A DNA stretch of 64,000 nucleotides from a candidate division FCPU426 bacterium (GCA_963771075.1 CAVYSE010000016.1:1-64000), one strand, 5' to 3'; positions 6,539 to 42,000 are shown, numbered from the stretch's first letter. Numbers and translations: made by a program. The notes: generated by a model from the letters alone, not told the origin.

Positions 6539-6723
6539 GACGTTTCGTATTTTAAAGATGCGAAAGTAATTGTCTTACAGCCATGGACATAAAGGGAGAA
6601 TATCCACAAAACTGTACTGCTCGCCCTTCTTGAACCCTATCATTTCCTTCGTTAAACACCTAACAAATTGGCCCTCTTTATGCTTTTCACCTTTTCATCA
6701 AATAACAAATGAAGGGTATATCC

Positions 6724-8175: not shown

Positions 8176-8207
8176 CAGGAGGGCGCAAGTGAACACACAA
8201 CAAACTA

Positions 8208-8395: not shown

Positions 8396-8412
8396 AGCCT
8401 TGAGGTGTTCCC

Positions 8413-10164: not shown

Positions 10165-10187
10165 AGGAAAATACGCAGACAAAAAGG

Positions 10188-10306
10188 AACACTAAGGGTG
10201 CGAAGTTCGCTAATACAAGCAACAGAGGAAATTAATTTAAACGAAGTTAAAACCTTCGATCTTAGAAGCCGTAACAAAACCATGCTTTTCTTCGCGTCTT
10301 CGCGTT
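10188..10306. repeat. Degenerate palindromic intergenic element (CGCGAAGACGCGAAG-type)
   Basis: CTTCGCGTCTTCGCG at 10290-10304 is identical to 22711-22725; a weak inverted partner lies at 10188-10205. Confidence 0.55.
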
Positions 10307-10341
10307 GAAAAAATCTTTTTTTGGTTTTACGGGGAGCGTCC

Positions 10342-24889: not shown

Positions 24890-26953
24890 TTGGCACTTCT
24901 CACGAAATGGGTAATACTCGCCTTTATCCTCCTTCTTGGGATTTGGTGCTTTCTCTGGCGGGGCCAACTTCCCTACCATGTTGACGCCTATTGCTACTCC
25001 TATCCGGACCACGCGGTCAACCTGGAATCCTTTCACCGGCACGCCCTCCCCCTTTGGAACGGGCTCATTGCCTGCGGGACCCCCCAGTTGGCCAGCTGGG
25101 TGTCAGCGAGTTTGTATCCTCCCTTTTGGCTGTTTAACTGGATCGGCCTCCCCAACGGGTTCATGGGGATAGTATTGGCTCACGCCGCTTTGGCCTTTTT
25201 GGGTTTTTACCTCTGGCTGCGAACCCTCAACCTCCTTCCTTTGGGGTGCGCCCTGGGCGCGTTCGCCTTCGCAGGCTCGGGTCACTTGGTCAGCTGTTGG
25301 AATAACCTGCCTTTTATCGCGACCGCCGCCTGGATCCCTTGGGTTTTTTGGGCGGTGAGAAAGGCCTTGGATCGGCCCGATTGGCGCCGATGGATGGTCC
25401 TGGGGATCGTATTAAGCTGCCAGACCTTGGCGGGTTACGTCTTTTTCCTCTTTTACACCCTGCTCTTCCTGGCGATTTGGTTCGAGGCCCAAAAGCCCTC
25501 TTGGGCATCCCGTGCGACCTTTGGGTTGACGCTCCTGCTGAGCGCCGGCCTGACCTCCATCCAATGGCTGCCCTTTCTCGATTTTTTGTCTTTCGGGCAT
25601 ACCGATCCCTGGCCCAGCTATCCCTATTTCATGAAACCTTTAGAATACGCCACCCTCCTCAAACCCGACCTTTTGGGGTTCTTGGGCTCCGCCGATTACC
25701 GGGGAACCTTCGCCAACGGGATTTTCAACCTTTACTTCGGCCTCATACCCCTAGCGCTCTTCCTGGCCTCCTTTTTCACGGCCCGCCGAGCCCATTCCCT
25801 TTTTTGGGCCCTTTCTGCCGTTTTCTTCCTTGCTTGGATGGGGGGACGCTCATGGTTCATTTGGGATTTTCTCCCGGACCGCGCGCTTGAGTTCCTGGAA
25901 CCTTCCAAGGCGGTGGGCCTCTTTCTCTTTTGCGCCATCACTTGCGCGATCCTGAACTTGGATTTTCTTTTAGCGTCCGTCCAAAAGCGCCGTGAGCTTT
26001 GGGCTGCCCTGGCGAGCCTCTTGGTGGTTTGTGACCTTTGCCACGTCCCCTTTGCGCTGTTGCACCGGATACCCAATCTCTTTCAGGACGCGGAAATGGG
26101 GCAAGAGGCTCGCCGAATGAAGAACTTAGTGGGTGATGCCCGGATCTTGACGATCCGTACCAACCGGGACGTTTTTTTCAACGGGGCGAATGCCTACGAG
26201 GATTCCTATTTGACTCCGATCCGGCAATTTACAGTGAATTCCAACGCGGCCTGGGGGTTCCGTTCCGCCGATGGCTACCAAACGCTTCAGGTCGAAGGAG
26301 CCGCGAACTTGAAACGCTATGAACTCAAGGGTTGGCCCTTCGCGGGGGATCTGCTGGATGTGGCGGGTGTCCGTTTCTTATTAGCGCCTCAAGGCCTGCC
26401 CACCACGAAATATAAGCTTTTGGAAAAAGGGGCCGATCACAACCTGTACCAAAACCCGGATGCCTCCCCGAATGTCCGTTGGGTAGGGGGAAAACGAGAA
26501 TGGGATAACCGCCCGCGGCTTTTAAACCAGCTTGCCCTTCCCCACAACCCCTGGAAGGAAAAAGTGGATCTGGAAAAGGACGGCGGGGGGGGGTATGTCC
26601 AGCTTCCACCGTCCCAACGCGTCCTGGCTTGCCCCCCTTCCCAGGACGGCAACAGTGGGATCGCTTCACGATCCTCCTCAAGCGTTCGGTCTTCCGGGCC
26701 GGGTTATGCGGTTCTAAACGAGACCTACGCCCCCGGATGGCGCACCTGGATCGACGGAATTCCCCACCCCATCTTGCGGGCCTATGGTCTTTTCATGGCC
26801 GTTCCGATCCCCTTGGGAGGGGAACATAGGGTCGATTTCCGTTATGAACCTGCCTCATTCCGCTTGGGGGCGTTCTTGGCCCTGTTGAGCTTTGCCCTGG
26901 CAATCCCCATGGTATTTTCCAGGCCGTTGGGGCCCGGACGCGGGATCGGTTAA
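24890..26953 (+). CDS. YfhO-family membrane protein (GT-C-like)
   Basis: LPLWN...GTP...LYPP N-terminus, many TM helices, C-terminal ETYAPGWRTWIDG...FRYEPASFRLG. Confidence 0.85.
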   Translation: MALLTKWVILAFILLLGIWCFLWRGQLPYHVDAYCYSYPDHAVNLESFHRHALPLWNGLIACGTPQLASWVSASLYPPFWLFNWIGLPNGFMGIVLAHAALAFLGFYLWLRTLNLLPLGCALGAFAFAGSGHLVSCWNNLPFIATAAWIPWVFWAVRKALDRPDWRRWMVLGIVLSCQTLAGYVFFLFYTLLFLAIWFEAQKPSWASRATFGLTLLLSAGLTSIQWLPFLDFLSFGHTDPWPSYPYFMKPLEYATLLKPDLLGFLGSADYRGTFANGIFNLYFGLIPLALFLASFFTARRAHSLFWALSAVFFLAWMGGRSWFIWDFLPDRALEFLEPSKAVGLFLFCAITCAILNLDFLLASVQKRRELWAALASLLVVCDLCHVPFALLHRIPNLFQDAEMGQEARRMKNLVGDARILTIRTNRDVFFNGANAYEDSYLTPIRQFTVNSNAAWGFRSADGYQTLQVEGAANLKRYELKGWPFAGDLLDVAGVRFLLAPQGLPTTKYKLLEKGADHNLYQNPDASPNVRWVGGKREWDNRPRLLNQLALPHNPWKEKVDLEKDGGGGYVQLPPSQRVLACPPSQDGNSGIASRSSSSVRSSGPGYAVLNETYAPGWRTWIDGIPHPILRAYGLFMAVPIPLGGEHRVDFRYEPASFRLGAFLALLSFALAIPMVFSRPLGPGRGIG

Positions 26954-27057: not shown

Positions 27058-28320
27058 CTATTCCCCCGACAGCAGTTTTTCCCAGATCGCCTCGTTCAAC
27101 AGCACCCGTTTGAACAAGTCCCGCTCATTCTCACTCGGGCTCAGGATTTCCGGCTGGACCGGAAAGGTCAGGATGTAACTGACGCCCTTTCCACTGGTCC
27201 TCGCCTCGATCTTCCCCCCGTGATGGTAGGTGATAAAGAAGCAGGTCATCAGCGCCAACCCCACTTCATGGGGGTTACCACTGCGGACGTAAAAGGGGTC
27301 GAAGACCGATCGAAGGGCTTCGGAAGGGATACCCGGTCCCGAATCCGATACCGTTATTTCCACTTCCTGGGGCAGGTCCCCTCCCCCTAGGGCCCGGCCC
27401 GCAATAGTCACCACCCCGCCCGTCGGCGTGCTCGCCAGTTCTTCCTGAAGCAGCATCTCAAAGAGCTTGTGGAACTTGGGGCCGTCCACGTACAGGAAGG
27501 GGAGGGTATCCGGCAAATGGTCCTCGAACTTGATCTTCTTTTGGGCGTATGCGTCCTTTAATTTCCCGAAGGCTTCCTGCACGACCGCGTTGGGCCTCAA
27601 CCGGTTTGGGAATTGAAAGGAGGGTTTTTCCGAGCTTTCCCCCAGGTCACTCAGGAGGTTGACGACCTTGTCCATCTGGCCCTGCACCTTGACGTAATAT
27701 TCCTTCCAAAAATCGGGGTTGCGGAGCTGTTCCAGGTCCAGGTTTTCCTCCCTCAGCTTCCGTGGGGCGAGGTCCAGGAAGGTCTTAACCGCCACCATGG
27801 AATTACGGATATGGTGCCCCAAACCGGCGGCCAGGATTCCCAGGCTGAGGATGCGGTCCGTGATCATGACCTGCTGTAAGACCGACATTTTTTCCCGCAA
27901 AAGCTGGTCCCGCTCGGCTTGGACCATGAAAAATTCCAATCCGCGCTTGAGGGTCACTTCCAAGAGGGGGATGTCCCAGGGCTTGCTGATGTACTTGTAG
28001 ATGGCCCCGGTATTAACCGATTCGATCGCGATCTCCAGGTCCGAGTAGGCCGTCACCAGGATCCTCACGATCTGGGGCTTCAAGAGGCGGGCTTTTTCCA
28101 AAAGCTGGATTCCCTTTTCCCCCGGCATCCGCTGGTCCGTCATCAGGATGGCGATCTGGTCGCGGTGCTTGCGCAGGAGGAAATAACCCTCCTCGGCGTT
28201 AGCGGCGGTCAGGACCGCGAACTTTTCCCCGAAGGCCTGGCCGAAGTATTTCAGCGATTTCTCCTCGTCATCCACGTAGAGGATGTAGAACTTCTTGTAA
28301 TTGTAGTAGTCAATCGACAT
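27058..28320 (-). CDS. Receiver plus histidine-kinase-like protein, PhcR/PhcQ-like
   Basis: REC (ILYVDDEE, MTDQRMP, YISKPW) followed by HisKA GLGHHIRN and a degenerate ATPase domain; last gene of the phcB-like operon. Confidence 0.8.
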   Translation of the reverse strand: MSIDYYNYKKFYILYVDDEEKSLKYFGQAFGEKFAVLTAANAEEGYFLLRKHRDQIAILMTDQRMPGEKGIQLLEKARLLKPQIVRILVTAYSDLEIAIESVNTGAIYKYISKPWDIPLLEVTLKRGLEFFMVQAERDQLLREKMSVLQQVMITDRILSLGILAAGLGHHIRNSMVAVKTFLDLAPRKLREENLDLEQLRNPDFWKEYYVKVQGQMDKVVNLLSDLGESSEKPSFQFPNRLRPNAVVQEAFGKLKDAYAQKKIKFEDHLPDTLPFLYVDGPKFHKLFEMLLQEELASTPTGGVVTIAGRALGGGDLPQEVEITVSDSGPGIPSEALRSVFDPFYVRSGNPHEVGLALMTCFFITYHHGGKIEARTSGKGVSYILTFPVQPEILSPSENERDLFKRVLLNEAIWEKLLSGE

Positions 28321-30973
28321 AGGCCGCCCCTTTCGCCTCTTTCGAGGGGAACTCCAGGATAAACTCGGTAAACTTCCCCTTTTCGCTCTCCACCCTGATG
28401 CTCCCGCCCTGTTCCTGCAGGATGCGGAAACATATGCTCAAGCCCAATCCCATCCCTTTGCCCACGTCCTTCGTTGTGAAAAAAGGGTCGTAAATCTTGT
28501 CCAGGTCCGCCGGGGCGATCCCCACGCCGTTGTCCCGAACCCTGATCCGGACCTTCCCGTCCACCTGGCGGCTCGTGATCCCCAGCCGGGGTTCCTCGCC
28601 CTGGAATACCTTTTGCCGCAGGGCATCGGCGGAGTTTTGGATCAGGTTCACGAAAACCTGGACCAGCTTGTTCTGGTCGGCGAGGACCTGATGGCCTTCC
28701 GGCAGGTCGATCTCGACCTTGATCCCGTCCTTGATCTCATGGCTGACGAACCTCAGGGCGAAGGAGACCGCCTTCGCCACCTCGATCCAATCCTCGCTCC
28801 CCCCATGGGACGGATGGGTGAAGGTGCGCAGGTCGGACACGATGCGCTGGACCCGGCCAAGACCCTCCGTGATATCCGCCAGGGTTTCCAAGTAGGGGGC
28901 CCGGTCCTCTTCCGGAAGGCGATCTTTTTTCCCCTTCAAGAGGTAAAGGGCCTGGAGGGAATAATTGAGCGGATTGTTGATCTCATGAATAATACCGGCG
29001 CTGAGGCGGCCGAGGGAAGCCATCTTTTCATTTTGGACCAGTTGTCCCTCCGTTTCTTTCAACTGCTCAAGTGACGTTTCCAGTGCACTTTTTTGGAGAG
29101 CGAGGTCGCGCTGATATTGGTGGGATTCGATCAGGTTCTTGACACGCACATGCAGTTCGGAAGTGGAGAAGGGTTTGGTGAGAAAGTCGTTCGCTCCGGC
29201 GTCCAGGGCGGCGTATTTGGTTTCCTCGTCGGCCCGGGCCGTGAGGAGAACCACCGGGATGGACTGGGTAGAGACCTGGCCCTTTAATTCGCGGCAGGCT
29301 TCGATGCCGTCTTTTTCGGGCATCATCATGTCCAGGAGGACTAGGTCGGGAAGATACTGGCGCCCCTTTTCCACCGCCTGGTTGCCGTTCACCGCCTCCA
29401 GCACCTCGTATTGCTTGGAAAGCTGGGCCTTGAGAAAACGCAGCATATCCGGCTCATCGTCCGCCACCAGTATTTTCTTTTTGCCCCGCTTCCCGAAAAC
29501 ATCCGGACGGAGGGTTTCGGACAAGGGGTTCAGGGTTGGGAAAAGCTCGGCCCGGCGGTAAAGCTTGGTCAGCCATTCTTCCTGTTCTTCTTCCGGATCG
29601 GGGCCTGCTGGAATTTTCGCCAATTCCGCTGGGAGAGGCGATTCCTTTGCTTCCTCATAAGGCAGGTCCACCGTCATGAGGGTGCCCACCCCGATCTCGC
29701 TCTCGGCGGTGACCTTCCCGCCCTGGGCCTCGGTCAGCTCCTTGACGAGCGCCAATCCGATCCCCGTACCTTGGTACTTGCGCTGGGCCGAGGAATCGGC
29801 CTGCCAAAAGCGGTCGAATATCAGCGGCAGGTTCTCCTTGGAAATGCCCATGCCGGTATCCTTGATCTTTAACAGGAGCCTCGCCCCCTCCCGTTCCAGG
29901 GTCAATTCCACCTTCCCCCCAGCCGGGGTGAACTTCAGGGCGTTGAAGAGTAGGTTTAGGATGATCTTTTCCATCTTACCCCGGTCCAACATCACGACAC
30001 CCAGCGGAGGTTGGACCCAGGCGGTCAAGGCCACCCTTTTGTCCCTTGCCGTGCCTTGAATGGACTGGGCCAAGCCCTTCACGAAGGATTCCAGTGCCAG
30101 GGGCTCCTTGTGGGTTTCCATGCGGCCTGATTCCAGCTTGGCTAGGTCCAAAAGGTCGTTGATGAGTTTCAAAAGGCGCATGGCGTTGTTTTCCATGATC
30201 CCCAGGGTGTCCCGGGATTCCTCGTCCAGCAGGTGCGATTTCTGTCGCCTCAGGGACTGGAGGGGGGAAATCAGGAGGGTCAGGGGAGTCCGTAGCTCGT
30301 GGCTGATATTGGCGAAGAACCGGCTTTTCATCTGGTCCAGTTCGATCAGCTTGCGGTTGGATTCTTCCAATTGTTTCTGGCTTTGATCCAATTCGTACCG
30401 GTTCGCGAATTCCCGCACCCGGATATTGTTGGTGAAATAACTGGCGAAGGTGGCGAAGAGGGCCGTGGAAAACAAAAAGTACAGGTTATTGGAGAAGATG
30501 CCCAGGAGAGATATGTTCCCATGGAACAGGCAGGCAGCCAGGTAAAAGGCAATCGAAACGACCGAAACAATCATGGTTTCCTGGTAGGTCCAAAGGAATG
30601 CGATGCACATGGCCAGTAAAACCAGGTTATAACCGGCATAGTAGGGCGACACGAACCCGTCGGTGGAATAGATCATCCATGAAAAAACCGCCTGGGGGAT
30701 CAAAGGCAAAATGAGCATCAGCAGACGGTAGGACTGGCCCCCCCACCGGGTGTAAAAAAGGGCGAATAGGGCCAGGGCGAGAAGCGCGGAGAGAAGCCGC
30801 AGTTTAAGAAAATAAGAAAAACACTGGGGATAAATGTTGATGTCTAAAAAGGCGCCCGCCGGCATGGCGAAGAAAACGAACCAACAGGCTATTTTGTTCA
30901 AGCGGATCCTTTCCCGCTTGTTGTAAACCTCGAAGGCCCGTTCAATTTCCGGGGGTAGGATTGTTTTAGCCAT
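28310..30973 (-). CDS. Membrane hybrid sensor kinase (TM-HK-REC-HK), PhcS-like
   Basis: About six N-terminal TM helices (SPYYAGYNLV), FFANISHELRTPLT, NALKFT, GTGIGL; REC (VADDE, LLDMMMP); second kinase IIHEINNPL...GMGLGL. Start MAKTILPPEI overlaps the upstream stop. Confidence 0.85.
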   Translation of the reverse strand: MAKTILPPEIERAFEVYNKRERIRLNKIACWFVFFAMPAGAFLDINIYPQCFSYFLKLRLLSALLALALFALFYTRWGGQSYRLLMLILPLIPQAVFSWMIYSTDGFVSPYYAGYNLVLLAMCIAFLWTYQETMIVSVVSIAFYLAACLFHGNISLLGIFSNNLYFLFSTALFATFASYFTNNIRVREFANRYELDQSQKQLEESNRKLIELDQMKSRFFANISHELRTPLTLLISPLQSLRRQKSHLLDEESRDTLGIMENNAMRLLKLINDLLDLAKLESGRMETHKEPLALESFVKGLAQSIQGTARDKRVALTAWVQPPLGVVMLDRGKMEKIILNLLFNALKFTPAGGKVELTLEREGARLLLKIKDTGMGISKENLPLIFDRFWQADSSAQRKYQGTGIGLALVKELTEAQGGKVTAESEIGVGTLMTVDLPYEEAKESPLPAELAKIPAGPDPEEEQEEWLTKLYRRAELFPTLNPLSETLRPDVFGKRGKKKILVADDEPDMLRFLKAQLSKQYEVLEAVNGNQAVEKGRQYLPDLVLLDMMMPEKDGIEACRELKGQVSTQSIPVVLLTARADEETKYAALDAGANDFLTKPFSTSELHVRVKNLIESHQYQRDLALQKSALETSLEQLKETEGQLVQNEKMASLGRLSAGIIHEINNPLNYSLQALYLLKGKKDRLPEEDRAPYLETLADITEGLGRVQRIVSDLRTFTHPSHGGSEDWIEVAKAVSFALRFVSHEIKDGIKVEIDLPEGHQVLADQNKLVQVFVNLIQNSADALRQKVFQGEEPRLGITSRQVDGKVRIRVRDNGVGIAPADLDKIYDPFFTTKDVGKGMGLGLSICFRILQEQGGSIRVESEKGKFTEFILEFPSKEAKGAAYVD

Positions 30974-32525
30974 TTTGATTTTCGTCCATTTCCGTGAAGA
31001 CCTTCGGGAAAATTCCCAGTCCATGATGGACGGCCACACCCAGGATACCACCCACGAGAGCCCCCGTGATGCCGTGGTTGTAAACATCCGTGCCAACCAA
31101 AGCCAGGCCTTTCACGGGGGTCCTGGGCCCCAGGGATTTCAAAGCATACCTGCGGGGGACCGCTGGAAAACCGTAAATTCCGCCTTTCCGGTGCCCGGTG
31201 AAATGCTCGATGGAAAGGGGTGTGGAAAGCTCGGCGTATTTCACTTCCGAACGGAACCCGGGAATCCGCTTTTCCACGAAATCCAACAGGCTCTCGGCGA
31301 TTGTTTTCTTTAACGCGTCATAGCCGGGGCCCCGGTTCATCCATCTTCCCTTTTTCCATTCCTCGAAAACCTCATAGTCCATCGCGGTGATAATTTCAGC
31401 CGTTGGTTTTGGGGCCGTGGGGTCTTTCAGGCCGGGGAAGGAGAGGTAGCAGAAAGACGGTTTACCCTCCGCCAATTCATTCCTCCGGTCCCATATGGAA
31501 TCCTGGTCGATCCCGTCGTAAATCCAGAAGTTCTGCCCATGTACGCCCAGGTGGGCGCAATCGGATTTCAACCCCAGGTACAAGATCACCACGCTGAAGG
31601 GCGACGCCAAGGTTATTTCCCTCAATTCCTCCGGGGCCAGGGTTCCCTCCGGGAGAAGGTCGCGGTAGGTGGCCCCGGCGCCGATATTCGAATAGATTTC
31701 GGGGGCCCTGATGATTTCGACACCCTTCCTGTTTTCCACCTGGACCCCGGTGGCCCTGCCCCCTTCCACCAAGACGCGGCTTACCCGGTTGCGAACTTTC
31801 AGTTCACCGCCCTTCTCCCGGACCAACCCGGCAACCGCCTGCGCGATCACGCGGGAGGATCCGACGGGATAATAGCCTCCCTCCAGGTAATGTTTGGCGT
31901 TGGCGGAATGCACACCGAAACTGGCTAATTTCGGCGGCAACCCGTAATCTCCCCATTGGAAAGCCAGGAGGCCTTTCAATTTCTCATCCTGGAAATGGGC
32001 GTTCAGGTAATCCCCGAAGGTCTGGCTGGCTAGCTCGCGGCATTTCTGGTAGGAAAAATTCGTTCCAAGCATTTTCGAGGAAGGAATATAGCGGCCGATC
32101 AGGTTTTCGGCGGTGAAAACCATGTCCCTGAAATACAGTTCAAGGTTTTCCGATTCGGGGGGGAAAAGACCTTTCAACTTTTGAAGGAAATTCTGGGCGC
32201 CGGAAGGAATATCCACCCGCATGTCCGGAAAGAGGACGGCCTCGAAAGGGTCCCTCATCTTGGCCCACTTCACCTGGTTTCCGGTGATGAAATCCATGGC
32301 GGACCTTAAGGGGCTACCGGGGTTCATTTCCCCCACGTAATGGAGCCCCACGTCCCATCGGTACCCGCCGGGTCGCTCGAAAGTATGGGTGAACCCTCCC
32401 AATTTGAAATGACTCTCCAGAACCAGAACCCGGTAGTTCTTGAGCCGGGCCAGCGCCGAGGCCGCGGTTAACCCGCCCATGCCCGAGCCGATGATGATGG
32501 CGTCATAGCCGTTTGGGTCCGCCAT
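30966..32525 (-). CDS. FAD-dependent oxidoreductase, retinol saturase / phytoene desaturase (CrtI) family
   Basis: IIIGSGMGGL, GGFTHTF...RWDVGLHYVG, GGYYPVG, STPLSIEHFTG..GGIYG, RTPVKGL. Confidence 0.88.
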   Translation of the reverse strand: MADPNGYDAIIIGSGMGGLTAASALARLKNYRVLVLESHFKLGGFTHTFERPGGYRWDVGLHYVGEMNPGSPLRSAMDFITGNQVKWAKMRDPFEAVLFPDMRVDIPSGAQNFLQKLKGLFPPESENLELYFRDMVFTAENLIGRYIPSSKMLGTNFSYQKCRELASQTFGDYLNAHFQDEKLKGLLAFQWGDYGLPPKLASFGVHSANAKHYLEGGYYPVGSSRVIAQAVAGLVREKGGELKVRNRVSRVLVEGGRATGVQVENRKGVEIIRAPEIYSNIGAGATYRDLLPEGTLAPEELREITLASPFSVVILYLGLKSDCAHLGVHGQNFWIYDGIDQDSIWDRRNELAEGKPSFCYLSFPGLKDPTAPKPTAEIITAMDYEVFEEWKKGRWMNRGPGYDALKKTIAESLLDFVEKRIPGFRSEVKYAELSTPLSIEHFTGHRKGGIYGFPAVPRRYALKSLGPRTPVKGLALVGTDVYNHGITGALVGGILGVAVHHGLGIFPKVFTEMDENQNG

Positions 32526-32527
32526 CC

Positions 32528-33967
32528 TCACTCCCCCCCTTTTCCACAGGCCTGGAGAGGCTTACGCACCTCGAGAAAGACGTTCACGCCCGTGGCTTCC
32601 GTCATGCTGGCGCAGGATTCCGCGGGCGCCGCGTCGGGCTTCAGGGTGGCCATTTGGCCCCCATTCCGGTAGATCAAATGCCACTCCATGAAACTTTCCA
32701 TGACGTTTTGGACGGGGTTGGAGGGCGTGACATTGGTCGCCAGCAAAAGGCCGCCGGGTTCCAACCTGTCGTAAAAATAATTCATCATCCGTTTACAAAT
32801 CCGGTCCTCCAGGTAATCAAACAATCCCGCGCAGTAGATCAGGTGGTAGGTTTTTCCCGGGAGTCCGGGAGGTGGGCTGAAGGATTCCTTGAGGATATGG
32901 TTCACCGATTTCTTGATGAGGCGGATCGACGTTTCCCTTTTGTGCAGGGTTTTCAGGTCATCCAACTTTCGGCTCGTGTGCTCCAGTGTCTCGTCGTTGA
33001 AATCCATCAGGTCGAATTCCGCGTGGTCGCTCAGGGGGGAGAGAGCGATGAATTCCTGGATCTCCTTCGCCGGCCCGCAACCCATATCCAGGATTCGGAT
33101 CTTCCTTTTTTCACGGACCGACCTTTCGGTTTCTTCTGTCAGGGTCTTTTTTAAGTGCTTGATGCGGTTTCGGTGGGCCTCGCAGGGCGGGGCGCTCAGG
33201 AAGAAGGTATTTAAAATTTTCGCGAAGAGGGACGATCCCTCAAAGGGTTCCCGCAGCATCATGTTCACCATCTCATAATCCCCGGCGTATCCCAGGGGTT
33301 TCTGGAAACTCCGGTAGACGAAGGGGGAGCAAAGGACCAGGGGATGGATCTGACGGCGGCTGTAGGAGCGGTGGATCAGGTGGAGATCCGCCGGGATTGC
33401 GGAGAGGGTCTGCTCGAACCGCTCGAACAGGGACCCCACCGCGGGCACGACCGAATCTTTTAATTCCAGGATCGCGTCTTTTTCGATGAGGGATCGGTCG
33501 GCGGATGGCTCCGACTGGATGCCTATTTCCACTTGTTCCAGCCAGCGCCGCATGTCCATTAGATAAGTCTGCATATCCGCGATCACGACCTTCAAGTGAT
33601 CGGAAACGTGGTGGATCTTTTCCCATTCCTTGAGGAAGGCGGAGAACTCATCCTTTAGCCTGTCCTTTTGGTGGATAGAGGAAAAGAGGTCGATATCCAG
33701 CCAGCTGTCCTCCAAAGTGCATTCGGAAATCAGAAGGATCCCGGTATTGACGAGGTTACTGACCACCGCCCGGCCCGAGTAAACCATCCGGTCATTCATG
33801 ATGATCCTGAAGTCGGTCAGGACCTCGGATAATTGGACAATGCTGTAAGGGTTATAGACTTCAAAAACCACCGTATAGCGGGTGAGCCGAAGCAAGGTGG
33901 CGTGGAATTCCGTACCCTGGCTATTGCGGCAAACAAGGATGGTGTCTTTACTCGTGATAATAGCCAT
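32528..33967 (-). CDS. phcB: PhcB-like SAM-dependent methyltransferase (3-hydroxy fatty acid methyl ester signal synthase family)
   Basis: SPFVYRSFQKPLGYAGDYEMVNMM, AHRNRI, ILDMGCGPA, IYCAGLFDYL, MEWHLIYR, as I recall them from PhcB homologues; context upstream of PhcS/PhcR-like genes. Confidence 0.78.
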   Translation of the reverse strand: MAIITSKDTILVCRNSQGTEFHATLLRLTRYTVVFEVYNPYSIVQLSEVLTDFRIIMNDRMVYSGRAVVSNLVNTGILLISECTLEDSWLDIDLFSSIHQKDRLKDEFSAFLKEWEKIHHVSDHLKVVIADMQTYLMDMRRWLEQVEIGIQSEPSADRSLIEKDAILELKDSVVPAVGSLFERFEQTLSAIPADLHLIHRSYSRRQIHPLVLCSPFVYRSFQKPLGYAGDYEMVNMMLREPFEGSSLFAKILNTFFLSAPPCEAHRNRIKHLKKTLTEETERSVREKRKIRILDMGCGPAKEIQEFIALSPLSDHAEFDLMDFNDETLEHTSRKLDDLKTLHKRETSIRLIKKSVNHILKESFSPPPGLPGKTYHLIYCAGLFDYLEDRICKRMMNYFYDRLEPGGLLLATNVTPSNPVQNVMESFMEWHLIYRNGGQMATLKPDAAPAESCASMTEATGVNVFLEVRKPLQACGKGGE

Positions 33968-34039
33968 TGGCCACTTTCTTATGAAAATTCCGCTTCATGC
34001 GTTCGGGTCATAAACTCCCAAGCTTAACGTCTTATTCCC

Positions 34040-34771
34040 CTAAAGGTTCAAGAGCGCTTCCTCACCCCAATCACAAAGAGGGTATTGGAGGTGATCGTGA
34101 TCAGGGTTGTAGGCCACGAGGGCCATGCAGTATCCCTCCGGGTCCGGGTCCGGTACAAAAAACTCCCAAGGACCCAGGCGGGAGCGGCTTTGGATGGGCA
34201 GGGGGACCGTCAAACGGCGAAAGACGGAACCCAATCCGATCCCAAGCGCCTTCCCATAGGCCTCCTTCATCGTGAAGATCCTGAAAAAAAACAAGGGCTG
34301 GGACCCTGAAGGTTGGGTAAACAAGTATTCCTTTTCTTCAGGTGTAAAAAAACGCTCCGCGAGACGCCTCCAACCCGGCCGGGCCTGGGGATCGGCTTTT
34401 TCCACGTCGATACCGACCGGGGTCCAACCGACGGAACAGACCATCCTTCCTGCGGTGTGGGCGAGGTTGAATTGAAGGTTTGAGCCCGCCAGGGTTGGTT
34501 TACCCCTTGGGTTTCGGATAAACCTCAAGGAGGATTCCTCCTGGTGAAGATAACCCGCTAGGATCCGGCGAAGAAACAATCGGGACAATAGAAATTCCCT
34601 TCTCCGCTCATCCGGCCGGATAAGGGAATACTCAACCTGCTCCTCCCTGGGAAGGAGGCCCAATCCGCGCGATTTGGAACACCCGGAATCATCCTCCCAG
34701 TCGAGGACATGAATGTGGATTTCGCCGACTCGAATCGCCTGGATCGTTTCCTCGCCGTGATTAACCAACAT
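34040..34771 (-). CDS. Sfp-type 4'-phosphopantetheinyl transferase
   Basis: GKP, FNLAHT, VGIDVE, FTMKEAYGKALGIG. Confidence 0.92.
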   Translation of the reverse strand: MLVNHGEETIQAIRVGEIHIHVLDWEDDSGCSKSRGLGLLPREEQVEYSLIRPDERRREFLLSRLFLRRILAGYLHQEESSLRFIRNPRGKPTLAGSNLQFNLAHTAGRMVCSVGWTPVGIDVEKADPQARPGWRRLAERFFTPEEKEYLFTQPSGSQPLFFFRIFTMKEAYGKALGIGLGSVFRRLTVPLPIQSRSRLGPWEFFVPDPDPEGYCMALVAYNPDHDHLQYPLCDWGEEALLNL

Positions 34772-34842
34772 CTAGCGTCCCTCCCGTTGCCCGCGACGGC
34801 TCACTCCCGAAGGACGGATTTTGGGGACCGACCCTTTCTTTC

Positions 34843-35562
34843 TCATCCGGCACCGCCGTCCAAAACGATCACGCCACCGTTCAAATAGTCCGGAGCCTCC
34901 CCCGCAAGGAAAAGAACAACCCGGGCGACCTCCTCGGGTCGGCAAAACCGGCGCAAGGGCACGGTTTGGAGAAGGACCTCCCTGGCCTGGGGCGTCATTT
35001 TTTCGATCATGGGCGTCTCGACCCCGCCGGGGGCCACCACATTGGCGGTCACGCCGTAGGGCCCCGATTCCTTGGCGAGGGCTTTGGTGAACCCGATCAG
35101 GCCAGCCTTGGAGGCGGAATAATTAGTCTGGCCGGGAAGGCCGTGCAGGCCGGAAACGGAGGAAAGGTTGATGATCCGCCCCTTTTTCTTTTTCATCATG
35201 TCCGTGGCGAACCGCCGCGTCAGGTGGAAGACTCCCTTGAGGTTGGTGTCCAAAACCCGCGACCAATCCTCGTCCGTCATGGCGAATAGGGGTTTGTCCC
35301 GGGTGATGCCCGCGTTGTTCACCAGCACGTCGATGTTCTTTTCTTCCCCCAGGACCTCTTTATAAAACCCGTCGCAGGCCTCCCGGTCCGCCACATCCAG
35401 CCGGTGGGCCTTTGCCTGTCCCGCGAAGCGGGTTTCCAGTTCCCGGGCCGCGGCCTCATTCGAAAGGAAGGTGAAATGCACCCTCCAACCGGCGGAAGCG
35501 AAGGTTTCCACCATGCTTTTCCCGATCCCCGAGGACCCGCCCGACAGGACGATCTTCCTCAT
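34843..35562 (-). CDS. fabG: 3-oxoacyl-ACP reductase (FabG-like SDR)
   Basis: SGGSSGIG, VNNAGITRD, GQTNYSASKAG. Start MRKIVL forms an ATGA overlap with the dehydratase stop. Confidence 0.92.
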   Translation of the reverse strand: MRKIVLSGGSSGIGKSMVETFASAGWRVHFTFLSNEAAARELETRFAGQAKAHRLDVADREACDGFYKEVLGEEKNIDVLVNNAGITRDKPLFAMTDEDWSRVLDTNLKGVFHLTRRFATDMMKKKKGRIINLSSVSGLHGLPGQTNYSASKAGLIGFTKALAKESGPYGVTANVVAPGGVETPMIEKMTPQAREVLLQTVPLRRFCRPEEVARVVLFLAGEAPDYLNGGVIVLDGGAG

Positions 35563-36026
35563 GATGTGGGAATTCTTAATTTGCCGAACAAAAGTTTCCC
35601 GGTCGCCGCCACTTCCCCGGCCACGTAGCACTTGCCCTCGACGATGCGGTTGGTGTCGGCTGTCTTGGTGATCCTCACGTGGGTTTCCAGCCGGTCGCCC
35701 GGGGTGATGGGCCTCATGAAATGGAAATCCAAAACCGCACCCATGACGTCGAATAAGCCCCCATGCCCTATTCCCTCGGCCTGTTCCGTCAGCCGGACCA
35801 GGATAGCGGCCGACTGGGCGAAGCATTCGATGGTCAGGACCCCTGGGAAGATGGGGGCTTCCGGAAAGTGGCCCTGGAAATGGATTTCGTTGGCCGTGAT
35901 GTTCTTGATCGCCTTCAGGGTTCCCCCCTTTTCCCACGACAGGACCCGGTCGACCATCAGCATCGGAAAGCGCTGTTTCAGAAAATCCAGCACCGGCAGG
36001 TCCGGGTTTAAGGCCTTATCCGGCAT
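35559..36026 (-). CDS. fabZ: 3-hydroxyacyl-ACP dehydratase (FabZ-like)
   Basis: QRFPMLMVDRV, FQGHFPEAPIFPGVLTIECFAQ. Confidence 0.9.
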   Translation of the reverse strand: MPDKALNPDLPVLDFLKQRFPMLMVDRVLSWEKGGTLKAIKNITANEIHFQGHFPEAPIFPGVLTIECFAQSAAILVRLTEQAEGIGHGGLFDVMGAVLDFHFMRPITPGDRLETHVRITKTADTNRIVEGKCYVAGEVAATGKLLFGKLRIPTS

Positions 36027-36264
36027 GGAGGAGCCCTTCGATCACCTTGGAGGCCTTCTCCACCGTGATCATGTTCACCAACAGGTCCGGCTCGATCATG
36101 ACGTTGAATTCGGTTTCCAACTTGGCCAAAAATTCCAGGGCCCTCATCGAGTCGTATTTGGCCATCTCGGGAAACGGCTTGTCATCCGTCACCGATACCT
36201 CCGGGACATCGAACATTCCGGAGATGATTCCCTTGATCTTTCCCTTGATTTCCGTCGTTTCCAT
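36016..36264 (-). CDS. Acyl carrier protein
   Basis: 82 aa, acidic, YDSMRALEF motif (phosphopantetheine-attachment Ser), LETEFNV. Confidence 0.9.
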   Translation of the reverse strand: METTEIKGKIKGIISGMFDVPEVSVTDDKPFPEMAKYDSMRALEFLAKLETEFNVMIEPDLLVNMITVEKASKVIEGLLHAG

Positions 36265-37158
36265 TTAACCCTTTCCTTTCCCGGCGCTTAATTTCACCAG
36301 CGTCACCCTGCGCTCCTCGGCCGCCATCGAAGCGACAACACCGGAAGGCCTGCCTGAGGATAAAAAATCCTCCAATGCCTTCCTCCCTCCCATGCCCTGC
36401 TCCCGGGCGGGATCGCCGGCGGCCCCACGTGAAATTCCATCCGGAAGGAATGGACCCAGGGGGGAGCCTTCGGGAAGGGCCGCCCACTCCACCCCTCCCC
36501 AAAAATCGTCCAACCGGCTCCGGAAAGGAAGGGGAATGGTTCCATCCCGCTTCCATTGGATGGAAAGGAAGTCTTCCACGCCAAAAGAGGTGCCGCTTGA
36601 TTCCTCCCCCGTCCCCAGAAATAGGATGGCGCCATCCCCGACCGGGGCGGAAGCCCGCAGGAAATTGGGTATTTTTTCCGCCGCTCCCACCAGGCACCGT
36701 TGAAAAAGCCCACTGTTCAAGCCCTCCCATGCGAAACCCAGGGCGTCCAGGAGCGAGGTCCCGCCGTTGGTCAGGGTGACATTCGGCCCCTTGAGCTGGA
36801 GCCAAATGCCGATACGGCTTCCCGCCGCGTTGGCAACGGTATTGGGAAAATCCATGGGATTGACGGTGTTGGGGCCTTTGAGGAGGGCCTGCTGATCGAA
36901 CGCCACGGAGCTTTCCAAGGCCCCGAAGCCGGTACCCAGAACCACCGCACAATGGCGGCGGGCATCCGCTTCAAGGGGTTGGCTTGCGCTGTCCAGCGCT
37001 TTCTTTGCCGCCATACCCGCCATCAGGGAGAGGGGGTCGATGTATTTGGGGGAAAGCTCGGGGAATAATTCCTGGAAGAGAATCGGGAGGGATTCCTCCC
37101 CCGTCCCATTCACTCCCAAAAGGATTTCCCCCTTGCCCAAGATGAACAATGGTCGCAA
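36265..37158 (-). CDS. Non-catalytic ketosynthase-like protein (chain-length-factor-like)
   Basis: KS N-terminal features (VVLGTGFG, NPMDFPNTVANAAGSRIGI, KGPNVTL), but TNGGTS replaces the active-site NACAS; truncated C-terminal domain. Confidence 0.78.
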   Translation of the reverse strand: MRPLFILGKGEILLGVNGTGEESLPILFQELFPELSPKYIDPLSLMAGMAAKKALDSASQPLEADARRHCAVVLGTGFGALESSVAFDQQALLKGPNTVNPMDFPNTVANAAGSRIGIWLQLKGPNVTLTNGGTSLLDALGFAWEGLNSGLFQRCLVGAAEKIPNFLRASAPVGDGAILFLGTGEESSGTSFGVEDFLSIQWKRDGTIPLPFRSRLDDFWGGVEWAALPEGSPLGPFLPDGISRGAAGDPAREQGMGGRKALEDFLSSGRPSGVVASMAAEERRVTLVKLSAGKGKG

Positions 37159-37167
37159 CGAAGCCCC

Positions 37168-38379
37168 CTATTTCTTCAGGACTAGGCAGGAGGTGTTCCC
37201 GCCGAAGGCAAAGGAGTTCGAAACAGCGACCTTGCCCGTGAAGGGTCTGGATCGGTTTGGCACGCAGTCCTCGACGCAGTCCGCGTCGGGGTTCTCCCAA
37301 TTGATGGTGGGAAGCAGCGTGCCCCGTTCCAGGCTCAGGCAGGTCATGACCGCCTCAATGGCGCTGGCGGCCCCCATGGTATGGCCGATCATGGATTTGA
37401 TGGAAGAAACGGGAATGGCGCGATCAGCGCCGAATATTTTTTTGATGGCGATGGATTCGGTCTTGTCATTGGCGGGGGTACCCGTTCCGTGGGCCGAGAT
37501 GTAGTCTACTTCACGGGGTGTGAGTCGGGCATCGTTCAACGCCTTTTGCAAGCTGTCAAAGGCGCCCTCCCCCTCGGGATGGGGGGCGGTCATGTGGTGG
37601 GCATCCATTCCCAAGCCGTAACCTGCGACCTCGCAATAGATATGGGCTCCCCGGGTCAAGGCCCTCCCCTTTTCTTCCAGGAGGAGGACTCCAACACCCT
37701 CGCTCACCACCAACCCTTTCCGGTTCTTCGAAAAGGGCCGGCACTTGTCCGGGGTCAGGGAAAGTAGCCGGTTGAACCCGGTGAAGGCGATCCGGGAAAA
37801 GGGATCCACCCCCCCGCACAGGGCCAGGTCCACCTGCCCCTGTCTGATTTGCTCCAGCCCCCAGCCAATGGCGTAATTGCCCGAGGCGCAGGCGTTGGAA
37901 AAGACCATCGACTTCCCGCCCAACCCCAAAAAATCCAGCACCGAGAAAGCAATATGGGATGCTTGCATTTTATGGAAACTTTCCGGATTCATTTCCCCCG
38001 ACCGGCCATTGGCCCTGAGCTCGGATAATTTCTCAACGAGCTGGACCTCGCCCATCGTGGTTCCAAAAAAACTTCCCACCCGGGCTGTTTCCATTTGAAT
38101 GGCGGGACCTCCCCCGTCCTGTAACGCCTCTTGCGCGGCAAGGATGGCCAATACGGAAGATCGCTCATACCTTCCTTGATTTTCCTGTTCAAAGGTTTTC
38201 AAGCGCCGGAGGTCCTTGATCTCACCCCCGATCTTGACCCGGTAAGGCGTCGGATCAAAGACTCGAACGGGGCCGATCCCCGATTGGCCTTCCACCATGG
38301 CTTTCCAAACGGCGGGGACCCCGTCCCCAAGGGGGCAAATGACCCCTAAACCAGTTACCACCGCTTCTCTGTGATTCAA
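37168..38379 (-). CDS. Beta-ketoacyl-ACP synthase (FabF / type II KS-alpha-like)
   Basis: VVTGLGVICPLG, SNACASG (Cys), AHGTGT and GHTMGA (His-His), SNSFAFGG; TTG start at 38379 after GGGAGG. Confidence 0.93.
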   Translation of the reverse strand: MNHREAVVTGLGVICPLGDGVPAVWKAMVEGQSGIGPVRVFDPTPYRVKIGGEIKDLRRLKTFEQENQGRYERSSVLAILAAQEALQDGGGPAIQMETARVGSFFGTTMGEVQLVEKLSELRANGRSGEMNPESFHKMQASHIAFSVLDFLGLGGKSMVFSNACASGNYAIGWGLEQIRQGQVDLALCGGVDPFSRIAFTGFNRLLSLTPDKCRPFSKNRKGLVVSEGVGVLLLEEKGRALTRGAHIYCEVAGYGLGMDAHHMTAPHPEGEGAFDSLQKALNDARLTPREVDYISAHGTGTPANDKTESIAIKKIFGADRAIPVSSIKSMIGHTMGAASAIEAVMTCLSLERGTLLPTINWENPDADCVEDCVPNRSRPFTGKVAVSNSFAFGGNTSCLVLKK

Positions 38380-38726: not shown

Positions 38727-39376
38727 TTAAATGGATTTGGATTTAGCGGGGCGCTTCGTCTGCCCGGAAAGTTGGATGTATCGTTGGAGTGTTCTCGGGC
38801 TTATTTCCAAGAGGGAGGCTAACGCCTCCCGTGGAAGATCGGTTTTATTGAGAATCAATACCAAAAACTGTTTAAAAAACAACCTTCGGGCCTGGGCCAA
38901 GCTGGTCTTTTGGTCGATACACCGTTTGACCTGCAAATTAACGAGCGAGGACAGTGGAGCGGGTCTTTTTTCCCAACGCGGTTCAAGGGATAAGAAAGCC
39001 TCCAGTTTGGACGCGAGGAGTTTCTCCTCCATCTGGCAGGAGAGGATATCGGCGAAACCCGATTTGATGGCCGAAACAACAAGTGATAATTGGGGGGGTA
39101 AACCAACGCGACCTTGACGCTCTGGGGCTGTAAATGGAATATCGTCTGGATGTCCCCCATCCCATCGTCGGATGGAAATTCCCATTGCAAAAGGAGCAGA
39201 TCAAAGTTTTGGATGTTGGCCGCTTCCAACGCTTCGTCGGAACTTTGAACCAATTGGATTTCGCCCAAGGGACGACAAGCCGCTTCAAGTTTTATTTGAA
39301 CCGTGTGATCGGTATGGAAAATGAGCATCTTTTTATTGGAATAGACCACTGGAATGCCTCCCATCACCCAATTCAA
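38727..39376 (-). CDS. Pseudo-receiver plus Fis-type HTH regulator, apparent frameshift
   Basis: REC-like N-part (EALEAANIQNFDLLLLQW; no acceptor Asp) joins YPPQLSLVVSAIKSGFADIL...ALASLLEISPRTLQRYI if one base is added to the G7 run at 39092-39098. Confidence 0.65.
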
Positions 39377-39440
39377 AGCTACCAGAAAACCGGGTGGAAA
39401 GGTATCGTTACGGCCCTGACCCGGGCAGAATTAACATCTT

Positions 39441-40580
39441 TTAAACGGCGCCGGACAAAAAGAGGGCAGAAAAGGAGGTTCCATGACCCCTTTTGCTGGA
39501 TACCTTTAAGAGGCCGCCGTAATTGACCATGATCCGGTGGCAAATGGCCAAACCCAATCCCGTGCCACCCATGCGGGTGGTGAAAAAGGGATCGAATATC
39601 TTTTGGATCTCCCTGGGGTCGATCCCCTTCCCGTCGTCTTTCACCGTCAGGCAGATGCCGGGATTTCCCCTTTTTCCCTTCGGGGCAGCCCGCTTGGCGG
39701 AGACCTGAATCGTACCTTTTTCGCCCACGGCTGAAATTGCGTTCTTGAGCAAATTCACTACCAAACTCTCGAATTGGACGGGGTCCACCTTTAGTTTCAA
39801 GCCGGGGTCGACCCTTAACTTGATCTGGATTTTTTTTCGACCCAAGCTGGGCCTGATCAATTGGTGGATCTGGCCAAGAGTTTCCTCCAGACAAACCACG
39901 TCGGGTGCCGGACTACCGCCCCTGGCGAACCTCAGACTTTGGTCCGTCAACAACTCAAGCCGGTCCAGTTCCTTGAGCATCAGGGATTGGAACGAATCCA
40001 TGAATGACGAGTCGTTCTTTTTGATCGGCAACAGTTGCACTAGGGTGCTCAAGGCCGTTAGGGGATTTCGAATCTCGTGGAACACCCCCGCGGAAAGAAA
40101 GCCAAGGGAAGATTGGCGGTCGGTCCTTTCGAGCATTTTCCAAAGTCGGCGATTCTCAAGCAGGTTGCCCAGAACCCAACCCAGGAATGGCAGGAAAGCC
40201 TCCGCCGGAATGGAACTCGAGGACCCGGGATTAACCTCCCCTCCCGCGGCGATACAACCGACCCACTCCTTTCCCCGAAAGACCGGATAGAGGCTGGACC
40301 CCGGGCCCAATCCGGGGTGAATTCCCCGGTTCAGCTTGAGGGTATTCCTCATTCGCCGGTAACTAGCGTGGGTAGGCTTGATCCGCACCTCATTTCCCAG
40401 CCAATTCCCCGTTAAGCCCTCGTCTGTTTTTTGGAGGTAGCCGAACGGAGGAAGATGAAACCGCTCCTCGAGGTAATGGCTCAAGGGAGTAAGATCCAGT
40501 TGGTTTTCGCCCTCCCCGTTCGGTGAAAATTCCAGGGGTGACGGAATTTCGGTGCCTCGGCGGCTCTTGACCTTTCCCAT
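39441..40580 (-). CDS. Cytoplasmic NtrB-like histidine kinase
   Basis: VFHEIRNPL, NLLKNAISA, DDGKGI, FDPFFTT, GTGLGL; no clear TM helix. Confidence 0.9.
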   Translation of the reverse strand: MGKVKSRRGTEIPSPLEFSPNGEGENQLDLTPLSHYLEERFHLPPFGYLQKTDEGLTGNWLGNEVRIKPTHASYRRMRNTLKLNRGIHPGLGPGSSLYPVFRGKEWVGCIAAGGEVNPGSSSSIPAEAFLPFLGWVLGNLLENRRLWKMLERTDRQSSLGFLSAGVFHEIRNPLTALSTLVQLLPIKKNDSSFMDSFQSLMLKELDRLELLTDQSLRFARGGSPAPDVVCLEETLGQIHQLIRPSLGRKKIQIKLRVDPGLKLKVDPVQFESLVVNLLKNAISAVGEKGTIQVSAKRAAPKGKRGNPGICLTVKDDGKGIDPREIQKIFDPFFTTRMGGTGLGLAICHRIMVNYGGLLKVSSKRGHGTSFSALFLSGAV

Positions 40581-40587
40581 GGAAACG

Positions 40588-42000
40588 CTATAGGCCCTTG
40601 AACCCGATCCCACGCGCGCGCCTTTGTATCACGATTTGGCGGTAATCCTCCTCAAGGTTTAATTCCCTCAATTTCCAAATCAAGGTGTTACGATGAAGGC
40701 CCAAGCTGGCCGCGGTGCGGGTTTGGTTCCCGCGGGTGTGTTCCAGGATCTTTCGAACATACTGCCGTTCAAACTGGTTGCGTACCCTTTTCAATGATAT
40801 TTTCGGATCCTTCCGCGAAGGCGCCAGGTCGATCTGCTTCAGTAAAAGGTCGATGGGAATGTCTTCCAAACCCAGCTCCTCCTTTCCCGCGAAAAAAGCC
40901 ATCATCTCGACGATGGATTCCATTTCGAGCAGGTTACCCGGCCAGGGATATTGGGTTAAATACTGGAGGGCGTCCTTATGGAAGGCCTTGGCGCCCGTCC
41001 GGGTCCTTTGACGGACATTTTTCAAGCATTGGAGGATCAATTCTTGAACGTCCCCCTTCCTTTCCCGAAGGGAGGGAATTTCGAGGGCGGCCCCGTTTAA
41101 GTGTTGGAAGAACTCCCGGCGGAGCGGATGCGAACCGGTTGGCAGGGGTTGGCGGGTTTCGATGGAAGCAATCACACGGACGTCCAAATCCTGGGCCGCC
41201 TTGCTGTTCAAACGGATGAACTTTTTTTCCCGGAGGACTTTGGATAATTTAGTTTGGATGGGATCCGGGATAAACTCGGCATGATCCAGGAAAAGGGTCC
41301 CATCATTCGCGAAATCCAATTTCCCGATCTGGGATTCTTTTTTGGGGGAATCCGGCCCCTCTAGCCCGAAAAGCTCACCGTCCCAATGGTTCCTGATAAC
41401 GGAGGAAGCATTCAGGCGGATGAAGGGGCCCTTCGACCGGGCGCTCTGGCGGTGTATCTCCCGGGCGATAGCCTCCTGCCCGCATCCCGGCTCCCCCGTC
41501 ATCAGGACGGGGACATCCTCCCGGGCGATTCCCTCGATTTTTTTCCTCAAAACCTTGATCTCGGGGCTGGACCCCAGAAAAACAAAATGGGAATCATCTT
41601 GATGATCCTGCTTCAAATAACGGATTTCCTTTTCCAGGTTCCGTTTTCCCAAGGCCCGTTGGATGACCGCGTATAGCTCTTCCAACTTGTAGGGTTTGGT
41701 CAAGTAATCATAGGCCCCATTTTTCATGCTCTCCAAACCCGTATCCGAATCTTTCAGGGCCGTTACCATGATGACATCCAACCCCTCGTCCCTGCGCTTG
41801 ACCTGCTTGAGAAGATCCAGGCCGGAGCCGTCGGGAAGGAGAATATCGAGCAGGTAAAGGTCGTATTCCCTTTGCTTGATCGCCTTTAATCCGGACTTGA
41901 AATCCTCCGCGAAGGTCAGGTCGTACATTTCCTTAAGTGCGAGACGGAAGGACTCCCGAACGCTTTCTTCATCATCCACGATTAAGAGATGGGCTTTCAA
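40588..42000 (-). CDS. NtrC-type response regulator with degenerate AAA+ domain
   Basis: REC (IVDDE, LLDILLPD, LTKP), sigma54-activator-like domain (GTLFLD, YPWPGNLLE), Fis HTH GNQTRTAASLGLHRNTL. Confidence 0.88.
   Translation of the reverse strand: MKAHLLIVDDEESVRESFRLALKEMYDLTFAEDFKSGLKAIKQREYDLYLLDILLPDGSGLDLLKQVKRRDEGLDVIMVTALKDSDTGLESMKNGAYDYLTKPYKLEELYAVIQRALGKRNLEKEIRYLKQDHQDDSHFVFLGSSPEIKVLRKKIEGIAREDVPVLMTGEPGCGQEAIAREIHRQSARSKGPFIRLNASSVIRNHWDGELFGLEGPDSPKKESQIGKLDFANDGTLFLDHAEFIPDPIQTKLSKVLREKKFIRLNSKAAQDLDVRVIASIETRQPLPTGSHPLRREFFQHLNGAALEIPSLRERKGDVQELILQCLKNVRQRTRTGAKAFHKDALQYLTQYPWPGNLLEMESIVEMMAFFAGKEELGLEDIPIDLLLKQIDLAPSRKDPKISLKRVRNQFERQYVRKILEHTRGNQTRTAASLGLHRNTLIWKLRELNLEEDYRQIVIQRRARGIGFKGL

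Follow-up and report, generated by a model that had tools for sequence, protein, structure and literature searches.

A probable variant of Phc signalling with its own chain-building cassette in a candidate division FCPU426 bacterium

The closest described counterparts of the locus analysed here come from two sides. On one side are the phcBSRQ loci of Ralstonia, Cupriavidus and Paraburkholderia, whose signals are 3-hydroxypalmitic and 3-hydroxymyristic acid methyl esters (3-OH PAME and 3-OH MAME); the accessible portion of a 2026 review describes Phc for the Ralstonia complex alone (PMC13220807). On the other are ketosynthase clusters, namely anammox 'Cluster I' (amxFabF2/amxFabFmut, amxACP, amxFabZ and a phytoene-dehydrogenase-like gene) and the highly reducing type II polyketide synthases (PKSs) for ishigamide (Iga10-12) and aryl polyenes (ApeO-ApeC). 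We analysed a stretch of 64,000 nucleotides (nt) from a candidate division FCPU426 bacterium (GCA_963771075.1 CAVYSE010000016.1:1-64000; hereafter the window), in which a minus-strand operon at 27058-38379 joins a PhcB-family methyltransferase and PhcS-type sensor to a cassette of the second kind. Each half is already known, and ketosynthase-made signals exist (PMC7154725, in the part accessible); the combination is a variant of Phc signalling. Comparison with related genomes shows that the cassette, phcB and the sensor domain pass down together as a single block, with conserved flanks on either side, and that the cytoplasmic relay follows the host lineage.

All ten open reading frames named in the first-pass annotation were found, co-oriented on the minus strand, and Pfam and NCBIfam matches back the function given to each. 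The operon opens with an active ketosynthase (KS; 37168..38379, 403 amino acids (aa), TTG start behind GGAGG) of the highly reducing type II or amxFabF2-like kind. It is followed by a Cys-less KS partner resembling a chain-length factor (CLF; 36265..37158, a short 297 aa), a dedicated acyl carrier protein (ACP; 36016..36264, 82 aa, YDSMR motif) and three enzymes recognised by domain and motif: a FabZ-type 3-hydroxyacyl-ACP dehydratase (DH; 35559..36026, 155 aa), a FabG-type ketoreductase (KR; 34843..35562, 239 aa) and an Sfp/HetI-type phosphopantetheinyl transferase (PPTase; 34040..34771, 243 aa). Then come the PhcB-family S-adenosylmethionine (SAM) methyltransferase (MT; 32528..33967, 479 aa), a RetSat/CrtI-like FAD oxidoreductase that is a candidate optional tailoring gene (30966..32525, 519 aa), a hybrid kinase (28310..30973, 887 aa) and a REC-DHp-CA protein, the REC-kinase (27058..28320, 420 aa). 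The hybrid kinase has a transmembrane-histidine kinase (HK)-REC-HK architecture, and its residues 1 to about 200 (30374..30973) form the PhcS-type membrane sensor domain that travels with phcB and the cassette. The nine junctions, in this order, measure +9, 0, -11, -4, +71, +72, +2, -8 and -11 nt, so that genes overlap or nearly abut except at two gaps of 71 and 72 nt, as had been reported. From the gene packing alone we infer that the ten genes are co-transcribed. The order KS-CLF-ACP-DH-(KR)-PPTase-MT-HK recurs in 12 other genomes of the family, and the arrangement is therefore more than chance. By inspection, the catalytic motifs are kept (KS Cys-His-His, ACP DSM, DH His/Glu and KR YxxxK) and the SAM and FAD glycine motifs are present in the MT and the flavoprotein; the GC content of the operon resembles that of its surroundings.

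The MT is 37% identical over 457 aa to a Ralstonia holmesii protein from a phcBSRQ locus and 38% identical to its Cupriavidus counterpart, and a plasmid search returned a Paraburkholderia homologue (38.6% over 97% of the length) with kinase and REC genes next to it. This homologue was used to fetch a Burkholderiales-type comparison set of 80 loci, mostly from Paraburkholderia, Cupriavidus and Ralstonia, which are four-gene loci with phcBSRQ synteny. Many close relatives of the MT carry the JGI name 'extracellular factor 3-hydroxypalmitic acid methyl ester biosynthesis protein'. Judged by its sequence, the window MT is a full-length PhcB homologue, and profile and phylogeny checks did not put it outside PhcB. 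A structural model (predicted local distance difference test score, pLDDT, 87) comprises an N-terminal beta domain, a helical bundle and a class I MT domain. Fold searches returned generic class I MTs (best 3OCJ, Z 20.1, 260 aligned residues, root-mean-square deviation 3.5) and are uninformative on substrate; a sequence search with the window MT found no solved PhcB structure. The genome of the window (4.39 Mb, 96.7% complete) has only one PhcB-like gene and one PhcS-like sensor detectable by hidden Markov model (HMM) search, both inside the operon.

The membrane part of the hybrid kinase matches the PhcS sensor (hhalign probability 100 over 182 columns), and its last HK domain shares 37-40% identity with the kinase domain of PhcS. 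The protein retains the REC Asp and both H boxes and contains a REC-HK segment resembling PhcR (27%). The first 200 residues of the REC-kinase are 45-46% identical to PhcQ, and the whole protein is 28% identical to PhcR. Its His box is kept, and neither the N-box Asn nor the G2 glycines are present; since the Asn is missing from all 17 aligned family copies, each with its His box kept, the REC-kinase may be a pseudokinase. In an hhalign comparison (95, 48 columns) the DHp helix of the REC-kinase matches the start of the C-terminal part of PhcQ (L204:11959-12966), and PhcQ may be a decayed REC-kinase. At the level of homology, the Phc-like sensor proposed at first pass is borne out for the hybrid kinase, which is PhcS-type; the REC-kinase is PhcQ-like in its first half, and no separate phcR gene was recognised. 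Compared with phcBSRQ, the operon shares a full-length PhcB homologue (37-39%), a PhcS-type sensor and kinase domain, a PhcQ-like REC protein and the synthase-sensor-REC order. It differs in its six upstream chain-building genes and optional flavoenzyme, in the extra HK-REC module of the sensor, and in the DHp-CA domain that its PhcQ-like protein retains. The flavoprotein gene stands between phcB and the sensor kinase in the window; in related loci that lack the cassette ('plain' loci) the kinase follows phcB directly.

The KS is 37% identical to the primary FabF of the same genome, whose primary fatty-acid synthesis (FAS) locus lies apart, on C7 (plsX-fabH-fabD-fabG-fabF, labelled from sequence inspection); the cassette is therefore a second acyl line. 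The partner has Gly where the KS has Cys, as do all 12 aligned partner copies. Both the KS and the partner find their best PDB sequence match in 9S5H (the partner in chain C), and the best fold matches of a partner model (pLDDT 75) are the ishigamide CLF 6KXF_B and also AntDE. The two would thus form a highly reducing type II-like KS/CLF pair, resembling the anammox FabF heterodimer and that of ishigamide. Because a segment of 9S5H chain C is near-identical, compared by eye, to Brocadia FabFmut in two loci (L254 and L261), 9S5H is very probably the anammox heterodimer described in a preprint (bioRxiv 10.64898/2026.05.19.726425). In the portion of the preprint accessible, that pair is reported to decarboxylate malonyl-ACP, to have tunnel branches suited to C12 and C16, and to crosslink with C6-C8 more quickly than with C16.

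Cluster I, as far as the accessible description goes, has the same gene set of KS, dead KS, ACP, FabZ and phytoene-dehydrogenase-like enzyme. It also has a B12-dependent radical SAM gene, and a domain search found none among the ten genes of the operon; the opposite strand carries two radical SAM genes at a distance of 16-20 kb, which look unrelated. The window further differs in the shortened partner, in the junction of the cassette to PhcB and sensors, and in its KS, which branches separately and has a Clostridia KS as sister (SH-like approximate likelihood ratio test, SH-aLRT, 99; 39-row KS tree). This Clostridia KS sits in the identical KS-CLF-ACP-DH-KR order. With the ishigamide and aryl polyene systems the window shares KS/CLF, ACP, KR and DH and the lack of an enoyl reductase; unlike them it has no starter-loading ligase or nonribosomal peptide synthetase and ends in a PhcB-family MT and a receptor. 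By gene content and domain search the cassette is without FabD, FabH and enoyl reductase; its ACP, KR and DH are dedicated, and the KR is missing in one relative (G063). The earlier idea that the operon builds a private acyl chain on its own ACP is in keeping with the dedicated genes, which are intact, and needs correcting in that the cassette, without FabD and enoyl reductase, is not self-sufficient.

We surveyed relatives as metagenome-assembled genomes, several of them incomplete, with trees from quick searches. Among 99 genomes of the phylum, 26 have phcB, all within the 32 of the window's order, and a strong CLF match (45-57%) occurs in 13 of these 32, the window's own genome included, each of them phcB-bearing; three weak CLF matches (29-33% over about 120 aa) were not counted, being probably FabF. 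In 11 of the 12 other cassette genomes the cassette lies directly upstream of phcB on one contig, and in the twelfth (G048) the two are split over two contigs. The synteny check on co-occurrence of the FAS-type genes with phcB was thus positive. The remaining 13 phcB genomes are plain. Four cassette genomes have an extra short-chain dehydrogenase/reductase (SDR). Among 80 metagenome loci, many on short contigs, cassette genes accompany 9 of 10 loci at 67-71% identity and none of the 70 others. In a further 76 loci (L005-L080) the cassette is present solely in L041, which belongs to the window's family, and a lone DH was seen in L014.

Genomes were labelled by cassette presence before tree building. 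The 13 cassette PhcBs, from seven genera of which three also have plain members, form one branch (SH-aLRT 100, 51-row quick tree), and no cassette genome has a plain-type phcB nor any plain genome a cassette-type one (0/13 each). The 12 cassette sensor domains likewise form one branch against 13 plain ones (SH-aLRT 99; G049 omitted as too short). The same grouping is rejected by approximately unbiased (AU) tests for the cytoplasmic kinase part (p 5e-56, 9 versus 11 rows), the REC-kinase (p 9e-76, 9 versus 9 rows) and RpoB (p 2.5e-5, 12 versus 11 rows; three genomes without phcB left out, and G062, G072 and G054 without usable RpoB). Two same-genus pairs that are sisters by RpoB, G068 (cassette) with G069 (plain) and G066 (cassette) with G065 (plain), make the break visible: kinase residues 1-200 are 34-50% identical and the rest 62-98%, with a sharp change at about residue 200, and the G068 sensor is 52-74% identical to those of cassette genomes of other genera. 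The DNA of both pairs is collinear on both flanks at 74-82%, with an insert of about 6 kb, phcB at 66-67% and a mostly unalignable sensor. The block thus starts behind the upstream region and stops where the sensor domain ends. Across 24 genomes, which are kin and not independent, so that p values overstate significance, PhcB distance correlates with sensor distance (Spearman 0.63) more than with RpoB (0.25) or REC-kinase (0.16), and the cytoplasmic kinase part, with the same dependence among kin, tracks RpoB (correlation 0.74). The four extra-SDR genomes share one sensor sub-branch (100). Since phcB and the sensor group by cassette, since the kinase part, REC-kinase and RpoB reject that grouping, and since the break falls at about residue 200, cassette, phcB and sensor appear to move as one specificity module, in keeping with the first proposal that the FAS genes belong with phcB and the sensor.

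The same trees could in principle reflect history or artefact, the ancestral cassette having been lost repeatedly with fast allele drift, or bins having been mixed, with no exchange of modules. Counts of changes cannot separate gain from loss, and one genome, G071 (L110, L111), has a cassette-linked phcB together with, on another contig, a second phcB start at the plain locus behind a PD-(D/E)XK gene; it could be a two-allele intermediate or a mixed bin. We consider this account very improbable: plain alleles keep the outgroup residue (Ser387 in 38/38 non-cassette PhcBs, Glu in 12/13 cassette PhcBs), and the switch falls within single contigs and within one gene.

A second reading would make the cassette cargo, a small polyene or lipid cluster inserted behind the phc promoter region so as to borrow density control; PhcB would go on using primary FAS for an ordinary 3-hydroxy fatty acid methyl ester, and co-inheritance would be hitchhiking. 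The insert is indeed placed between the ancestral upstream region and phcB, and a genome search found no PhcB-like gene in the Clostridia genome with the sister KS and matching gene order; among 78 loci holding KS relatives from outside the family, a neighbouring PhcB-like gene is missing from 76. However, at its N-terminus a plain-locus phcB copy has 91-98% identity to alleles of either type, so that crossovers there could move the cassette alone, yet mismatched cassette and phcB types are absent from the 13 + 13 genomes. The block also ends exactly at the border of sensor and kinase, and no other enzyme for release, transfer or export is encoded in the cassette.

Moreover, the pairing recurs with different parts in Nitrospirota, to which the other two of the 78 loci belong; both carry a distant PhcB-family MT. 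This MT matches 76 of 301 genomes of its phylum. In 20 loci chosen from the stronger matches on long contigs, a CLF-like gene adjoins the MT in 19, an active KS in 18, a phytoene-dehydrogenase-like gene in 14 and a sensor kinase in 16; cassette and sensor are both present in 15 of these chosen loci, and two of the four sensorless loci stop at a contig end. Nitrospirota and family profiles align for the MT (probability 99.6) and for the sensor (98.4; ten shuffles all at or below 1.3), and HMM matches agree. The Nitrospirota KSs lie on another branch than the family KSs (joint clade rejected, AU p 0.017), gene order differs and the flavoenzymes are 23% alike; the coupling of MT, cassette and sensor therefore probably arose twice. 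On this balance we regard the cargo explanation as unlikely. Several Nitrospirota MT N-termini (L246, L281, L433-L444) show PilZ-like RxxxR and DxSxxG motifs, with a Pfam PilZ match below cut-off (E 0.0096), and others have no such domain; the N-terminal beta domain of the window MT has no profile support as PilZ against these N-termini (probability 0.4).

We favour, at a probability of about 0.7, the reading in which an unsaturated acyl chain made by the cassette is methylated by PhcB and then recognised by the sensor. The PPTase would prime the ACP, malonyl loading would be borrowed from the primary FabD, and the KS/CLF heterodimer would elongate the chain and set its length. KR and DH would then reduce and dehydrate; since the cassette lacks an enoyl reductase, the chain would probably be (poly)unsaturated, perhaps ending as a 3-hydroxy acid, and the optional flavoenzyme would change a double bond. 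For Ralstonia PhcB, action on acyl-ACP and on free acid have both been proposed, and here PhcB might form the methyl ester from the acyl-ACP or a released acid and so yield a signal that diffuses. This signal would be bound by the PhcS-type membrane domain and passed on through HK-REC-HK to the PhcQ-like relay. Chain length, unsaturation and the 3-hydroxyl are guesses by analogy with the families concerned, and a conjugated polyene ester as product is a tentative suggestion, somewhat short of an even bet.

Alternatively, PhcB may finish the cassette product and the ester serve as a cell-bound lipid or pigment, or as a short-range or self-monitoring cue read by the kinase in the producer's membrane, with no density signalling. 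The anammox lipid cluster contains the closest KS/CLF relatives, the operon is without exporter or transcriptional target, and highly reducing type II systems make polyenes (PMC7949117, accessible part). Such a role nevertheless seems improbable to us, for the rapid, coupled diversification of synthase and sensor among sister genomes fits kin-specific signals better than a structural lipid, and the characterised PhcB products are diffusible (PMC6989110, accessible part).

Several observations weigh against the favoured reading. Inspection of the ten genes revealed no transcriptional output regulator, and linked genes can travel together without functional coupling. The presence of the flavoenzyme does not follow sensor sub-branches; its orthologue occurs in 6/13 cassette genomes, always in the operon, before or after phcB, so that the tailoring step proposed for it would be optional. 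In G063 a thioesterase replaces the KR. Residue 22 of the window PhcB (33902-33904) is His, where most cassette relatives have Arg, as does the R. holmesii protein at the position numbered R22 in R. solanacearum PhcB; R22C there lowers signal output (PMC6989110, accessible part), and the window allele may be weaker. Finally, in the DNA examined, the cassette is absent from all 80 Burkholderiales-type loci, from 74 mostly Verrucomicrobiota loci and from 13/26 phcB-bearing relatives. With so many phcB loci lacking it, PhcB does not need the cassette. While every genomic prediction attached to the label of a new quorum-sensing system held, half of the phcB-bearing relatives run the three signalling genes on their own, and 'variant of Phc signalling' is the better name.

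A possible output arm lies upstream of the operon on the same strand (38855..42000), a candidate from domain and neighbourhood comparison. It comprises an NtrC-like regulator (40588-42000), a histidine kinase (39441-40613) and a weak REC protein (38855-39376). Homologues of the regulator adjoin 5 of 26 related loci examined and those of the kinase 3 of 26. The regulator, which recurs beside phc loci, lacks a GAFTGA motif in the expected loop and is a possible local output regulator. A promoter and terminator scan of the operon region stayed at chance level, and comparison with related loci gave no shared upstream motif that includes the window. The words TTTAAAGGATTAACC and TTTTAAGGTTAA recur before phcB or KS in L111, L118, L119, L122 and L128, and partly in L001, L115, L326 and L328; they were not seen in the window and may be an operator. 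The window has no Rfam match, and a repeat search gave weak matches and nothing more. LvrA/LvrB, top or high among NCBIfam matches, were rejected as identities, scoring far below cut-off (306 of 1200 and 46 of 500 bits).

PhcB-family MTs also occur in other settings. A type I PKS on an Enterobacter ludwigii plasmid (L109:12775-15912) ends in such a domain (25%), which suggests that these MTs may terminate chains as methyl esters. On plasmids of Rhizobium etli (L454:5478-8777) and Pseudanabaena (L453:8103-10333), distant members have as neighbours an EAL protein and a kinase with membrane domains weakly resembling that of PhcS; the MT occurs on 111 Rhizobium plasmids. On a Deinococcus plasmid (L456:5398-8756) a fatty acid desaturase, an acyltransferase-like gene, a second MT and a PhcB-family MT stand in a row. 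Elsewhere in the window, a YfhO-like membrane protein gene (24890-26953) with at least five paralogous matches in the genome converges on the operon end, and 13823-15544 encodes a HemD-HemE (uroporphyrinogen synthase-decarboxylase) fusion. A 1101-aa secreted protein with a FlgD-Ig domain is encoded at 45820-49125, where GC skew is locally strong (46-48 kb). At 6709-11211, circularly permuted ATP-grasp and alpha-E genes precede two further genes, a set that presumably corresponds to the known peptide-ligase/proteasome-like/transglutaminase group.

The first-pass annotation knew of no description of the arrangement, and we found no description of phcB beside a KS/CLF cassette in the literature searched, whose coverage mostly leaves out subscription papers. 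In agr of Staphylococcus and comQXP of Bacillus, synthesis genes and the sensor half of the receptor covary and the cytoplasmic half is conserved; inheritance of the present module resembles that pattern, although those systems use peptide signals and unrelated proteins. In the accessible part of PMC7154725, Photorhabdus dialkylresorcinol (DarABC/PauR) and photopyrone (PpyS/PluR) are likewise cell-cell signals made by a dedicated ketosynthase (and ACP). Those ketosynthases join two ready-made acyl chains and their products are read by LuxR solos, whereas the window has an iterative KS/CLF line, an MT and a membrane kinase. We see roughly even odds that PhcB-family MTs and PhcS-type sensors form a general synthase-receptor pair that captured a KS/CLF line at least twice, in this family and in Nitrospirota, for a new class of polyunsaturated methyl-ester autoinducers, the block being exchanged between lineages as a small-molecule analogue of peptide pherotype loci.

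Phc signalling has so far been characterised in a few Burkholderiaceae, and both of its signals come from primary fatty-acid synthesis. The natural series of alleles, which have or lack the flavoenzyme, the extra SDR or the thioesterase and carry matched sensors, is a set for finding the PhcB substrate and the ligand-binding residues of PhcS-type sensors, and the operon is a small, expressible relative of the anammox core of KS/CLF and phytoene-dehydrogenase-like enzyme. If the favoured reading is true, uncultured bacteria would use the Phc synthase-sensor pair with custom-built chains, opening new autoinducer chemistry, and the module would be a lipid example of swappable signal specificity.

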